A stretch of 64,000 nt of DNA. Source: a virus (lineage: Duplodnaviria > Heunggongvirae > Uroviricota > Caudoviricetes). The DNA is taken from the IMG/VR virus record IMGVR_UViG_2675903278_000002, one strand, 5' to 3'. How positions within the stretch are numbered: the stretch's first letter is position 1; each line of letters starts with the position of its first letter. Under the pieces are notes generated by a model. That model saw nothing but the letters and a program-made list of their open reading frames with translations. It searched no databases and was not told the DNA's origin. Position numbers and translations under genes: made by a program. Positions 6,266 to 37,080 of the stretch are shown here, piece after piece.

Positions 6266-6601
6266 ATGAAGGCCATCCCATTCGCGCTGTTGTTCCTTTC
6301 TTCGATCGTTGTGGCCGACACCACTGTTTATCAGTGTGAAATGTCTGTAGCCGACGTTAAGAATGGCGCTCTTACCGACGTCATAAAAGCACCATATGGA
6401 GCGATGGTCGTAGACAGCGGCGACCAGTTCTATGTTGTGCGTGACGATCGAGTGTTGTCATCCCCATATCTCACAAATCGTAATGGCAAATTAACCGGCG
6501 TCGGAGAAGACCACTTCGTATACAACAAATACAAGGGCTTCTATGGCGTTCACGCTTCTCAGCAAAGCTACCTTTTCGATGACTGCAAGGAGGTTGGATA
6601 A
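6266..6601 (+). CDS. hypothetical exported protein
   Basis: N-terminal signal peptide (MKAIPFALLFLSSIVVA), 111 aa. Confidence 0.45.
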   Translation: MKAIPFALLFLSSIVVADTTVYQCEMSVADVKNGALTDVIKAPYGAMVVDSGDQFYVVRDDRVLSSPYLTNRNGKLTGVGEDHFVYNKYKGFYGVHASQQSYLFDDCKEVG

Positions 6602-6813
6602 TGGCATTAACACTGGCAGGTCTGGAAATCGAGAAAACAAGCGGCTACTGGCGTGCTAAGGGTTTCAAGCAGCCTGGCATTCTTGAGCGTCTGGAACGTG
6701 AAGATGGGTATATCGTCCACCAGCGGCGTGAATGGCGTATGTACGATCCAGAAACAGGAAAACTGACTACAAAAGCCGGAACACTTTGGGGTCTGTTGAA
6801 GAAAATACACTAA
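6601..6813 (+). CDS. hypothetical protein
   Basis: 70-aa ORF, start overlaps upstream stop. Confidence 0.4.
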   Translation: MALTLAGLEIEKTSGYWRAKGFKQPGILERLEREDGYIVHQRREWRMYDPETGKLTTKAGTLWGLLKKIH

Positions 6814-6820
6814 TAGCACC

Positions 6821-7303
6821 AACCACTGCGGTGAGTAGTCTGCTCACCGCATTCGTATCCAGCTCATTATCCACTGTAGTCAGTAACAAAACCTTCCTAC
6901 ATATCTGCTAACCACTGTAGCGAGTAGACAGCCTTTCATTCGCATCAAACAACCACTATGGTGAGTATTGGAGTGAGATGTCCAGCGGGTATCCACTATG
7001 GTGAGTAAGCCTTTGCTGTTTTCAGTGGATATCCACTCGCCACAGTGGATACGCTCAAAGATGAGGGCGACAACAACCACTATAGACAGTAAATTTTCCA
7101 AGATACCCAGTGACCACTAACCTCGCAGCCCTTGTTTCATCAGTGTTAGTGATCACTAACATTTAATTCAGTATTTGCATTCTACTGCCTACAGTGGTTA
7201 TCAACAGATAACGATACTCACTATAGTGGATAGCGAATTACAGATATAAGTAAGGCTCACTACAGTGGATAGTGAGCCTTACTACTAACTACAGTGGTTG
7301 GGC
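6821..7303. repeat. iteron array downstream of repA (about 10 copies of a ~19-bp repeat, both orientations; incA-like)
   Basis: repeated (A/T)ACCACT(A/G)T(A/G)G(T/C)GAGTA units at ~6821, 6869, 6910, 6951, 6991, 7026-7053 (palindromic pair), 7075, and inverted copies at ~7217, 7257, 7287. Confidence 0.75.
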
Positions 7304-8358
7304 TATTTGCGAGTCTTTGCCTTGCGCAACTCTTCGAGAAGCGCCAGTTCTTCTTTACTCAACATGACCATTTTGCCTTCTTTTTCGTCAGGCACAACGT
7401 CGATAATGTCATCTTGATTCTCATCTGGGAGGCTATATTCCGTCTCATCATTATCGATTTTTGTTGATATTTGTGCCTGGCGTAACTTTGGCCGCCTATA
7501 GTGGATGACGAAGTAGACCGAGTTTCCGCGCTTAACTTCCGTGTAATCGAGATATCCTATCTCTCGCAGCTGTTCCATAGCCTTTCTTACCGTCGCATTC
7601 TGAGTAATAGTGCGACTTGTCAGATTAAGTCTGGCGCGTAAACGGGCTAGTGATATTGGTGCCGGATCAGGCGGCAAACTTTCAATAAAAGTATAAAGCG
7701 CCTGAGCGGATTCTTTTCTTGAGAGTTCGTTTATAGCCCGGAGTTGCAGAAGAACCTTTTTGTCGAACTGGTAGAGTTCGAAAATCTTGGGATCTGCTTT
7801 CAGTTCGACCGTATCGTGCTTGACACTATATTTTGCCGTTTGCACAAGATGCGTTACGTAAAACTCATCAGAGCCTTTGCTACGGAACGAGATGGTATTT
7901 GTGGCAATACGGCTTAGCGAACTGTCCAGGCGTTTGCGTAACTTCGCTGATGACCTGGCGGTCGGAATGCCACACAGCCTTACAAACTCAACGAACGGCA
8001 ACGTGACAGTATCGCCAACGACCTTGTGTTTGGCAAACGCGTGGATTATTCCCACCCACGTTTTAAAGTCGTTATCCATATCAAGCCGAAGGCCAGAGAT
8101 CCTTATGTCTTCGTACCCTTCGGCTTTTGCCAGAGACAGCTGTTTGAGTTCAGCAGAGGCATCCATAGAGACCATTTGCCCCTTTCTTCCTCTGGATGTC
8201 GATTTCAGCGTCGGAACGAAGAGGCCCAGACGCATCAAAGCAACAGGCTGAACAGTGTTATTAGTGTTAGGAACCAACGTAACAACTTCGCCTGTCTTTT
8301 TATCTGTTTCTGAAAATGCTTCAACGATCGCTATGTTTTTATTGCCGTTTTCGCTCAT
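7303..8358 (-). CDS. repA: plasmid replication initiator RepA (P1 RepA / RepFIB family)
   Basis: 351 aa; recalled similarity to P1 RepA ([30 protein letters not shown]); flanked by iteron arrays. Confidence 0.8.
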
Positions 8359-8403
8359 TCCAAATGTCTCTTGTTATTCGACGGCTTTGGTGGCCTTTGC
8401 TGA

Positions 8404-8528
8404 TTACAGTGGATAGTAGCACTCATCACAGCGGTTATCCTACCGTCTATAGTGGTTTTTCTCCTCTCTATAGTGGTTGCTTTGCTCCCTATAGTGGATT
8501 ATTCGCTCTCTATAGTGGATATCGATCA
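8404..8528. repeat. six direct ~21-bp iterons immediately upstream of repA (origin/incC-like)
   Basis: TC(T/C)CTATAGTGG(A/T)T units at ~8404, 8425, 8445, 8466, 8487, 8508. Confidence 0.8.
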
Positions 8529-8559
8529 TGTCTGAAGGCAGATGGCACAACGGTTTGAG

Positions 8560-8690
8560 GTGGGCGGGGATCTTATTGGGTCTTTATGGGTCTCTTTGGT
8601 TCTCTTTGTGATCTGAATTACTGGATCGGGCCTGTGGATAAAAATCAGAGGATTTCAAGAACAGGTAACTCTACTCTTCTGTGGATATTT
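8560..8690. promoter_or_regulatory. origin-proximal region with perfect DnaA box and GATC sites
   Basis: TGTGGATAA at 8633-8641 (reverse complement of TTATCCACA); second near-box at ~8679; GATC at 8569, 8610, 8624; TCTCTTT repeats. Confidence 0.6.
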
Positions 8691-8800
8691 AAGGACATAA
8701 GAATCATGACTAAGAGTAGAGTTTAAAATATATCTATGTATATCAGTATGTTAATGAAGAATTAAGTCATTAAGTTATCCATAAAAGACAATGTGCTCTA

Positions 8801-8908
8801 CTCTCTACAGTGGATATATACAGCTCTCCAGAGTGGTTGTTTTACTCTTCATAGCGGTTATTCAGCTCTCTACAGAGGTTTCTTTGCTCTCCATAGTGGA
8901 TGGCAACA
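8801..8908. repeat. second array of five direct ~21-bp iterons
   Basis: units at ~8801, 8824, 8846, 8867, 8888, preceded by an AT-rich stretch (8690-8790). Confidence 0.7.
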
Positions 8909-8944
8909 CCCTTTCAGACCAGTAACCGCAACGGCTAGAGGCGA

Positions 8945-9005
8945 TCGGGGATCTCTTTGGATCTTCTATTTGATCTTACTTGGGATCTCTTATTTGGATC
9001 TATCC
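8945..9005. promoter_or_regulatory. cluster of five GGATCT/TGATCT heptamers (Dam sites) at ~11-14 bp spacing plus DnaA-box-like site
   Basis: GGATCTC, GGATCTT, TGATCTT, GGATCTC, GGATCTA within ~55 bp; TTATCCACT-like box on opposite strand at ~8993. Confidence 0.6.
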
Positions 9006-9101
9006 AGTGGATAACTGGGATAAGTAAAACAGGCAAATGCAGATTAAGGTATGCCTAATGAGTTATCGTAGCATCGGCCAATAACTACTGAAAAAACGAT
9101 T

Positions 9102-9746
9102 ATGGATCTAAAACGCACGCGCTGGGTTCGTCGTCTTGAGGACGGCTCCTACACTATCGAATCAAATTCCAACCTGAATAAGCAGAAGTTACTTTGTGAT
9201 ATCTGCGGTATAGCGGCGAAGTGCCCGATCTACGAAACCAGAATTAAACTTGATAAGGCTGGTGTGAACTTTCATTTGAATAGTTGTATCAGGTACGTTC
9301 CATTGCTCGCATTTCGTAAACCGATCATCGGATTGGATGCGCCCTACTTCAACACACTCCGTTCAGGAGTAACGTGGCGAGATCGTTTATCACCAGACAA
9401 ACTGATTTGCCTTGTATCCGCAGATACAGGAAAAATCATTCGTTTTGGGAAAGTAGACAAGGTTTACTCAGGCCCAGTTGACGAGATGTTGCGGAAACAC
9501 AGCCGGTTTAATCACCTCTGCATGGGTGGTGAGAAAATCGAGAAGGTTGAAGAAGTGATCCGCAAATCCTACGGACACTTCCTGACCAAAGATAGCCTGC
9601 TCACTGCAATCTACATCAGACATGTAAAACGTGAGTTCGACCTTGAATACCATAGCGAAGAAGAACTGAACCTTGTCGATCCACGTCCTAAAGCTGGCGT
9701 CATAAGCATAAATGCAGCGCGTAAAAAGCCCACTGACGCGCTGTAA
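9102..9746 (+). CDS. hypothetical protein (Cys-containing, next to origin)
   Basis: 214-aa ORF; followed by hairpin at ~9769-9792. Confidence 0.5.
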   Translation: MDLKRTRWVRRLEDGSYTIESNSNLNKQKLLCDICGIAAKCPIYETRIKLDKAGVNFHLNSCIRYVPLLAFRKPIIGLDAPYFNTLRSGVTWRDRLSPDKLICLVSADTGKIIRFGKVDKVYSGPVDEMLRKHSRFNHLCMGGEKIEKVEEVIRKSYGHFLTKDSLLTAIYIRHVKREFDLEYHSEEELNLVDPRPKAGVISINAARKKPTDAL

Positions 9747-35979: not shown

Positions 35980-37080
35980 TCACACTGCGCGGAATGCGAT
36001 TTCGCCAGGTATTACTTCACCTTGCCAATACATTTGGGCAGCAACGCGATCTGCGAGGTCACGATAAATAGCCGTAAATTCGCTATCTGGACGACTAATA
36101 ACGGTTGGTGTTCCGTTATCCAGATCTTCACGAAGAGAGATATGAAGTGGCATTTGGCCTAACAACTGCGTGTTGTATTTCTCGGCCAGTTTCTGTGCGC
36201 CACCGGTGCCAAAAATTGGCTCGTGATGACCGCAGTTACTGCAAATATGCACACTCATGTTTTCGACGATACCCAGTACCGGCACTTCGACTTTTTCGAA
36301 CATCACAATGCCTTTCTTCGCATCGATCAGCGCGATGTCTTGCGGCGTAGTTACCACAACCGCACCAGTTACAGGAATGTTCTGCGCCAGCGTCAACTGA
36401 ATATCACCAGTGCCCGGCGGCATATCGAGAACGAGATAGTCCAGATCAGGCCATAGAGTTTCCTGCAACATCTGCATCAGCGCCTTGCTGGCCATCGGTC
36501 CACGCCACACCATTGCATTGTCGTCGGTGACCAGATAACCAATAGAGTTGGTTGCCAGGCCATGAGACATGATAGGTGCCATGTGAGTACCGTCCGGTGA
36601 GGTTGGACGTTGGTTTTCCGCGCCCAGCATGGTTGGAATTGATGGACCATAGATATCGGCATCCAAAATACCAACTTTCGCACCTTCAGCAGCCAACGCC
36701 AGTGCCAGATTTACCGCCGTGGAGGATTTACCTACGCCGCCCTTGCCTGAGCTGACGGCGATAATGTTCTTAACGCCATTAATGCCTGGTTGGTTTTTGA
36801 CGCGCTTAAGCGTGGCAATGTTGTACGACAGCTTCCAGTCAATAGCCTTTGCGCCAGTGATACGGAGCAGATCACCACTACATTGCTCTTTCAGGTCTTC
36901 AAAAGGCTTATTCCACACGAAAGGCATGATTAGTTCGACATGCAGTGTGTCATCCATCAACGCAACATGGTGTAACGCTTTAAGCGTAGTCAGGTTGTGT
37001 TTCAGGGTTGGGTGCTGAAAATTAGCCAGCGTACCGGCTACCATTGCTCTCAGGGCATCCGGCGATTTGGACTCGCTCAT
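35980..37080 (-). CDS. apbC: Fe-S cluster carrier ATPase ApbC/Mrp
   Basis: 366 aa; near-identical to enterobacterial Mrp as recalled (SGKGGVGKS P-loop, CSNCGH motif); divergent from metG as in E. coli. Confidence 0.9.
   Translation of the reverse strand: MSESKSPDALRAMVAGTLANFQHPTLKHNLTTLKALHHVALMDDTLHVELIMPFVWNKPFEDLKEQCSGDLLRITGAKAIDWKLSYNIATLKRVKNQPGINGVKNIIAVSSGKGGVGKSSTAVNLALALAAEGAKVGILDADIYGPSIPTMLGAENQRPTSPDGTHMAPIMSHGLATNSIGYLVTDDNAMVWRGPMASKALMQMLQETLWPDLDYLVLDMPPGTGDIQLTLAQNIPVTGAVVVTTPQDIALIDAKKGIVMFEKVEVPVLGIVENMSVHICSNCGHHEPIFGTGGAQKLAEKYNTQLLGQMPLHISLREDLDNGTPTVISRPDSEFTAIYRDLADRVAAQMYWQGEVIPGEIAFRAV

Follow-up and report, generated by a model that had tools for sequence, protein, structure and literature searches.

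Which of two similar sequences starts replication when a plasmid replicon carries its origin twice, and what would the other copy be for? The question is raised by positions 6700-9100 of a stretch of 64,000 nucleotides from a tailed phage (Caudoviricetes; IMG/VR record IMGVR_UViG_2675903278_000002), the whole of which we call the window. Here the minus-strand gene repA, encoding a plasmid-type replication initiator, is surrounded by arrays of iterons. This segment shares 100% identity with Escherichia phage Cyrano (OV696614), which is the phage-plasmid pLF82 of E. coli LF82, and 83% with Salmonella phage SSU5. It is very probably the replicon that maintains an SSU5-family phage-plasmid as a prophage, namely a theta replicon under iteron control that belongs to the P1 oriR / RepFIB class. 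As such, the replicon is already known: it is annotated as RepA/IncFIB and is common to pMT1, pHCM2-type Salmonella plasmids, SSU5 and Cyrano/pLF82. The tandem duplication of a whole origin module, with which this study is concerned, is a descriptive refinement of that replicon and has been little described. Indeed, we found no description of a duplicated origin module in the literature searched, which excluded the older papers on pMT1, P1 oriR, RepFIB and D6/SSU5; a 2026 preprint on copy-number mutants of a phage-plasmid deals with another replicon, of the CopA/IncFII type.

Two paralogous modules upstream of repA

Iterons were called with a 21-nt position-weight matrix against a background of mononucleotide shuffles, the maxima of which lie at 12-18.7 bits. 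The scan returned 23 iterons, namely 12 downstream of repA, six directly upstream and five further out (Table 1), and 21 of them score above 19 bits; besides these arrays and an iteron-like site at 7488-7508, no other site in the 64 kb reaches at least 15 bits. Likewise, the 64 kb contain the 10-nt core YAYAGYGGWT 23 times, where shuffles give an expectation of 1.3 ± 1.1, and 20 of these occurrences fall within 6869-8901. Tandem Repeats Finder independently returned both arrays of 21-bp period, together with repeats of 10 bp at 8576-8608 and of 12-13 bp at 8949-9001. A first-pass annotation, made from the sequence alone, had described three iteron arrays, and all three were recovered far above chance and within a few bases of where it had placed them: six direct iterons upstream of repA, as it had said, and five in the third array, for which it had given 8801-8908. 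Downstream of repA it had counted about 10 iterons in both orientations and likened them to incA of P1; the orientations and the likeness hold, but the number is 12.

The two upstream arrays each form part of a longer unit. The segments 8396-8641, proximal to repA, and 8797-9023, distal to it, are paralogous from end to end and offset from each other by about 381 bp; the paralogy takes in the iterons and the spacer as well as the periodic repeats and the DnaA box, and is supported by the repeat families D1, D9, D10 and D15. The P1 oriR-like architecture that had been recognized at first reading is retained in a refined form: what had been taken for an extra iteron array does not stand alone, but is a component of a second complete module of the P1 oriR type, in tandem with the first.

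The proximal copy is distinguished from the distal one by a sixth iteron, one extra repeat unit and a single but perfect DnaA box. Its direct iterons keep the 21-22-bp, two-helical-turn phase just upstream of repA that is characteristic of the class (start spacings 22, 21, 21, 21, 21), and the start codon of repA is 38 bp away. In three of its six repeat units the Dam site is still present (GATC at 8569, 8610 and 8624), the others reading GGGTCT or GGTTCT, so that the Dam-site cluster of the class is only partly developed here. The box TTATCCACA at the end of the module, which had also been pointed out in the first-pass annotation, is one of two perfect DnaA boxes within 64 kb; in pMT1, SSU5 and the E. 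coli plasmid RHB41 it reads TTATACACA, by which the consensus is still satisfied.

In the distal module, the iterons follow each other at start spacings of 23, 21, 21 and 21, and a full Dam-site cluster lies between iterons and DnaA boxes. Its six GATC sites (8943, 8950, 8960, 8972, 8984 and 8997) fall within 58 bp and form the densest such cluster of the window, which elsewhere has at most three per 80 bp and on average 4.4 per kb. The dense cluster had been noticed before as five GGATCT units at 8945-9005; the cluster itself is borne out, but its units are four GGATCT, one TGATCT and one CGATCG. A 40-mer inside these repeats is among the least stable duplexes of 6700-9200 (-45.0 kcal/mol, compared with a mean of -53.7 ± 3.7), and since the proximal repeats reach -48.0 kcal/mol per 40-mer, the distal ones are predicted to open more easily. 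The distal repeats also resemble the 13-mers of oriC, GATCTnTTnTTTT, as in GATCTCTTATTTG at 8984. Both modules have DnaA boxes at their outer end, TTATCCACA at 8633-8641 and TTATCCACT at 9006-9014.

Table 1. Features of the replicon, in window coordinates.
Feature	Position	Strand	Remarks
Downstream incA-like control array, 12 iterons	6819-7301	both orientations	position-weight scores 18.6-26.8 bits
repA	7303-8358	-	351-aa Rep_3 replication initiator (winged-helix WH1+WH2)
Iteron-like site in 3' part of repA	7488-7508	+	TTGGCCGCCTATAGTGGATGA, 15.7 bits; significance uncertain
Proximal iterons, six direct	8396-8522	+	position-weight scan, Tandem Repeats Finder; presumed repA operator
Proximal GGNTCT repeats, 10-bp period	8566-8627	+	paralogous to 8942-9001
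Perfect DnaA box TTATCCACA, end of proximal module	8633-8641	-	
Inter-module spacer	8642-8796		AT-rich tract and two one-mismatch DnaA-like boxes
Distal iterons, five direct, 21-bp phase	8797-8903	+	position-weight scan, Tandem Repeats Finder
Distal GC-rich spacer	8904-8941		last iteron to first GATC, 40 bp
Distal GATC (Dam) repeats, six sites, 10-13-bp period	8942-9001	+	presumed strand-opening region
DnaA box TTATCCACT (9006-9014), then degenerate second box	9006-9023	-	same as first P1 oriR box

Conservation and spread of the modules

We aligned Cyrano with pMT1, SSU5 and RHB41, which is a divergent E. coli plasmid, and used the four-fold degenerate sites of repA as a neutral yardstick; these are 63-64% identical to those of pMT1 and SSU5. 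Relative to the same two elements, the proximal iterons are 89-90% identical and the proximal repeats together with their DnaA box 94-95%, the latter being the best-conserved non-coding segment. The corresponding values in the distal module are 86-87% for the iterons, 84% for the GC-rich spacer and 77-78% for the GATC repeats with their DnaA box, and none of the six distal GATC sites varies in the four relatives. Because identities of 77-95% stand against 63-64% at neutral sites, both modules are under purifying selection. The spacer between them, at 62-64% identity with the relatives, is at the neutral level.

A scan of one genome per species gave 80 loci with a RepA 62-91% identical to the one described here, and the layout was counted in the 47 analysable loci in which RepA is at least 67% identical over nearly its full length. 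Of these 47, about 40 have two iteron clusters with the same core upstream of rep, 200-400 bp apart, and they come from Kluyvera, Buttiauxella, Yersinia, Rahnella, Phytobacter, Erwinia, Pantoea, Franconibacter and Cedecea. Within 140 bp after the cluster, these loci always have 5-7 GATC sites on the distal side and 0-6 on the proximal one. In a 206-kb plasmid of Pantoea agglomerans, which was read directly, there are two complete modules with 4-5 GATC sites and a DnaA box each, and the layout is also present in Pantoea plasmids whose records have 200 kb and more. A single module, in turn, is found in a sister group (loci L070-L094) whose iterons have another core, in P1, in F RepFIB and in the alternative replicons of Klebsiella and E. 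coli; single-module relatives in the same phage backbone have a GATC/DnaA core that is homologous to the distal copy. Since two modules recur in about 40 loci, Pantoea included, and the sister group has one, the duplication is old and marks a RepFIB subclade that reaches beyond phage-plasmids. The two-module layout thus looks like a stable architectural trait of this subclade and not like an accident.

The spacer between the modules is at 25% guanine plus cytosine (GC) in this lineage only, the values being 40-42% in pMT1, SSU5 and RHB41. It comprises the AT-rich stretch that had been proposed earlier, which extends over 8680-8799 at 23-27% GC, as well as the one-mismatch DnaA-like boxes at 8680-8688 (minus) and 8775-8783 (plus). 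A natural insertion interrupts it in pM-64-197 (NZ_MT773672.1, locus L010), an otherwise near-identical phage-plasmid: a unit of ~3 kb with ISEcp1 and blaCTX-M-64 lies at the equivalent of 8653-8657, with a 5-bp target duplication (TTTCA) and 12 bp past the proximal DnaA box, and the resistance gene hence sits in non-coding DNA of the replicon, exactly between the modules. As pM-64-197 with this insertion is a complete circular record, the insertion is tolerated and contiguity of the modules is not required. We also considered a composite origin like ori2 of F, which would combine the distal iterons with the AT-rich tract and with the two DnaA boxes that start at 8633 and 8680. This was rejected because the AT-rich tract is lineage-specific, the spacer is neutral and the 3-kb insertion at 8653-8657 is tolerated.

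On the minus strand of the same spacer, a strong promoter-like site at 8754->8727 (TTAACA, 16-nt spacer, TATATT; 10/12) is aimed at the proximal module and repA. It was set aside; it is not conserved in pMT1 and SSU5 with their less AT-rich spacers. The -10 hexamer of P1, TAGGAT, is found between proximal iterons 2 and 3 (8438-8443, minus) with no recognisable -35, and a search of 6400-9400 for RNA regulators in Rfam gave no match at E <= 1.

The initiator and the downstream array

RepA matches the Pfam domains Rep3_N (1.3e-10) and Rep3_C, both above their cut-offs, as well as PHROG 775; searches of PDB sequences and of NCBIfam with RepA gave no match. Its identity is 91-92% with the RepA proteins of pMT1 and SSU5, and 69% with the Rep of a Pantoea plasmid of 206 kb. 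Outside the clade, RepA of F RepFIB comes closest (60%, E 5e-143), and identities of 50% and 49% (E 5e-93) are reached with the Rep of an alternative SSU5-like replicon and with P1 RepA, respectively. Together with the IncFIB type of its relatives, these matches agree with the P1 RepA/RepFIB type that had been assigned at first sight, and the alignment places the protein in the Rep_3 family of initiators and not in a non-initiator family.

The array downstream of repA holds iterons in two orientations, as do incA of P1 and the E-K repeats of RepFIB. Six are inverted (6819, 6867, 6908, 6949, 6989 and 7073) and six have the orientation of the origin iterons (7012, 7032, 7181, 7213, 7252 and 7281); their number varies from 12 here to 14 in pMT1 and 15 in SSU5. 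A gap mid-way in this array contains a perfect 16-bp palindrome, GTTAGTGATCACTAAC, at 7145-7160, which is accompanied by an inverted half-site at 7109-7121, has no second copy within the window and is not a canonical terminator. Similar motifs, GGTTAGTRACCACTGG, occur within or beside the arrays downstream of rep in two further replicon types (L006, ~838-905; L012, ~1063-1120), and the region 7108-7160 may be a binding site for a protein. The iteron-like site inside repA, the score of which is within the shuffle range, is kept in pMT1 and SSU5, but as it lies on codons of the conserved IHYRRP motif of the protein, it could be a coincidence.

Plasmid state of the element

In PLSDB, 174 circular plasmids of ~100-125 kb are 99-100% identical to 6700-9100, and MOB-suite types them as IncFIB and non-mobilizable; the same type is assigned to pMT1. 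The 743-bp region upstream of repA is present in 91 of 5,426 complete E. coli genomes, each time on a plasmid and never on a chromosome, and it is full-length in all 90 genomes in which it was matched as a single piece. Furthermore, Cyrano/pLF82, a siphovirus that can be induced, persists as a plasmid with a copy number of ~5.5 per cell (PMC9928086). Both the exclusive plasmid location and this copy number support the view, put forward in the first-pass annotation, that the element replicates as a low-copy plasmid in lysogeny. As a replicon the segment offers little that is new; it confirms the plasmid upkeep of the element during lysogeny.

Neighbouring genes and partition

In the maintenance block of P1, a parA-parB-parS operon directly adjoins incA. 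Here, no ParA is found near repA, the neighbours of which encode a Cra-like protein, hypothetical proteins, an SPFH protein, RecA, a protein annotated as ASCH and SbcCD; the ParA that is annotated in Cyrano is encoded outside the window, at a distance of ~31 kb from repA. The lack of an adjacent parA had been seen correctly at the outset. A gene at 35980-37080 (minus), which is annotated in Cyrano as "septum site-determining protein MinD", was considered as a partition ATPase and discarded: it encodes an ApbC/Mrp iron-sulfur carrier (NCBIfam ApbC equivalog, 759 bits at a cut-off of 348), and is as such an auxiliary metabolic gene. Two open reading frames with ParB_N domains at ~51-52.4 kb have no ParA adjoining them. 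The window further encodes a Dam-family N6-adenine methyltransferase (24136-24729, plus; Pfam PF05869, 2.5e-38), which, if specific for GATC, could methylate the element's own origin.

Discussion

How such a replicon would work can be outlined by homology with the established mechanism of P1 and RepFIB, using the annotations of the P1 record, the dissection of a FIB replicon in PMC11983097 and the papers by Abeles, Brendler, Mukhopadhyay and Park that PMC5043065 lists. Monomers of RepA would bind the phased iterons and host DnaA the terminal box, and both proteins together would open the GATC-repeat region, which would have to be Dam-methylated. RepA sitting on the repA-proximal iterons would repress the repA promoter, and copy number would be limited by handcuffing, in which RepA couples the origin iterons to the downstream array or to the iterons of a sister copy.

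With two modules at hand, our preferred assignment of roles is that the distal module (8797-9023) acts as the principal Dam-dependent origin, while the proximal module (8396-8641) serves mainly as the repA operator, its origin-like core being auxiliary or a back-up. The distal module is favored because it is colinear with P1 oriR, because its GATC cluster is invariant across the clade and because the single-module relatives in the same backbone match the distal copy. Still, we give this assignment just an even chance, because no segment is better conserved in this lineage than the proximal core. Several observations weigh against it. An identity of 94-95% for the proximal GGNTCT repeats and DnaA box among SSU5, pMT1 and Cyrano is unexpected for a mere relic beside an operator; a conserved sigma-70-like promoter was not found within the proximal iterons across four relatives; and the distal DnaA box is one base off the consensus in this lineage. 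The variant with the ISEcp1 insertion favors neither module over the other, and it is by homology that this replicon is predicted to fire from its origin, to bind RepA, to depend on Dam and to be autoregulated.

It is conceivable, if doubtful, that the proximal module is the working origin and that the distal one is an extra copy-control locus, for handcuffing or incompatibility, with a leftover origin-like sequence. The repeats of the proximal module are the best conserved, its DnaA box is perfect, it lies next to repA as does the origin in P1, F RepFIB and every single-module relative, and the tolerated 3-kb insertion splits the distal module from repA. Handcuffing alone, however, requires neither GATC sites nor a DnaA box, and still the six GATC sites of the distal copy do not vary among four lineages, in a segment that is 77-78% identical where neutral sites reach 63%; the distal side keeps 5-7 GATC sites in about 40 relatives, in which the proximal side falls to zero, and it is the distal copy, not the proximal one, that matches P1 oriR in geometry and sequence. 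Improbable, but to be taken seriously, is also the idea that both modules are independent working origins served by one RepA, one being rich in Dam/SeqA sites and the other poor, with two modes of initiation control. This would fit with every class of origin element being kept in both modules under purifying selection, with 4-6 GATC sites and a DnaA box in both modules of Pantoea relatives, and with the modules not needing to be contiguous; against it, the proximal GATC sites fall to zero in some lineages, such that a second origin is not universally kept, and the conservation of the proximal core could stem from promoter or regulatory roles. More speculatively, one RepA might drive two initiation regimes, one at a Dam/SeqA-rich distal and one at a GATC-poor proximal origin. 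If so, sequestered, once-per-cycle upkeep could be set against a firing that is relaxed or independent of Dam, be it in certain hosts or upon induction, and the dual-origin layout would define a large RepFIB subclade across Enterobacterales, as a trait that has gone unrecognised.

Two further explanations carry very little weight. That the second module serves lytic replication or regulates the gene at 9102-9746, rather than plasmid maintenance, we consider very improbable: the module does lie ~90 bp upstream of this conserved gene in all SSU5-like relatives, and the element has a lytic cycle and replisome genes of its own, but the layout also occurs on the large Pantoea plasmids (records of at least 200 kb), in one of which, upon inspection, no coding sequence is annotated for ~1.4 kb beyond the distal module, and the module is homologous to theta origins of the plasmid mode, namely P1 oriR and the F RepFIB origin. 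Hardly credible is the notion that one upstream array is a non-functional relic of duplication or recombination. Three of the six proximal GATC sites have decayed to GGTCT or GTTCT, as a relic would suggest, but the decayed repeats are invariant in Cyrano, pMT1, SSU5 and RHB41, in a segment with 94-95% identity against 63% at neutral sites; moreover, both arrays persist over genera in which RepA is only 67-77% identical, and the region is complete in all 90 E. coli genomes that matched in one piece.

The presence of two modules bears on replicon typing and on the choice of the array for incompatibility-based curing cassettes. Through incompatibility, pMT1 is cured by its own cloned replicon (Ni 2008, as cited in PMC6199537). 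The two modules also bear on the copy-number control of phage-plasmids that carry resistance genes, such as the relative with ISEcp1-blaCTX-M-64 between its modules.

Comparison with known systems

Among the elements that have the same replicon, SSU5 and pMT1 are 80-83% identical to it at the DNA level, and all share 6 + 5 upstream iterons, both modules and the same type of downstream array; SSU5 and pMT1 differ from the present element in single-base changes of the DnaA boxes and in an inter-module spacer that is not AT-rich. Other SSU5-like phage-plasmids, of the Klebsiella pKPHS1 type and the E. coli rep_cluster_488 type, have alternative replicons with a Rep of ~50% identity and the iteron ACCGCTGACAGCATA. 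These replicons lie at the same site, between the Cra-like gene and the counterpart of the 9102-9746 gene, and contain a homologous GATC/DnaA core but one module. On the rep_cluster_488 plasmids of E. coli, the flanking proteins WP_001229345.1 and WP_000364573.1, counterparts of the window open reading frames at 6601-6813 and 9102-9746, are identical to those around repA on IncFIB plasmids with 100% identity to our segment. The replicon appears to have been swapped as a cassette within an otherwise conserved backbone.

The RepFIB replicons of F, P307 and pO157 have related iterons, TACTGACYAYAGYTTAT compared with TACTCACYAYAGTGGAT, and the F RepFIB origin has in common with the present element, as have the two alternative SSU5-like replicon types, a GATC cluster and a DnaA-box core. 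In the FIB replicon dissected in PMC11983097, the upstream iterons (BCDD'D'') are associated with the origin and the downstream iterons (E-K) with control and incompatibility, which is the division of labor that we propose here. F RepFIB has a single origin module, unlike the present element. Cross-incompatibility between the two would not be expected, because the 3' half of the iteron differs.

P1 is likewise the prophage-plasmid replicon of a temperate phage, with a homologous RepA. It differs in its iteron sequence, in having one origin module instead of two and in the parAB genes that adjoin its replicon, whereas none are adjacent here; RepA of the present element is 65 aa longer, with BLASTP aligning residues 28-293 and leaving the acidic C-terminal tail unmatched. 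The incA locus of P1 comprises nine iterons, of which six are inverted and the other three, nearest to repA, are direct, and the downstream array here follows the same logic of inverted-far and direct-near with 12 iterons (6 + 6). The likeness extends to the details of the origin. P1 has five incC iterons at start spacings of 22, 21, 21 and 21, where the distal module has 23, 21, 21 and 21, and in both the Dam sites begin 40 bp after the iterons end. The Dam sites are spaced by 7, 10, 11 and 23 bp in P1 (five sites) and by 7, 10, 12, 12 and 13 bp in the distal module (six sites), and in both the cluster is followed, after 6 bp, by a DnaA box, which belongs to a tandem in P1 and is TTATCCACT here. 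A stretch of 21 nt, TTGGATCTATCCAGTGGATAA, is identical in the two, and the curated P1 record annotates DnaA binding at the position that corresponds to the distal TTATCCACT box. Judged by these correspondences, the distal module is, of both copies, the one that more closely resembles P1 oriR.

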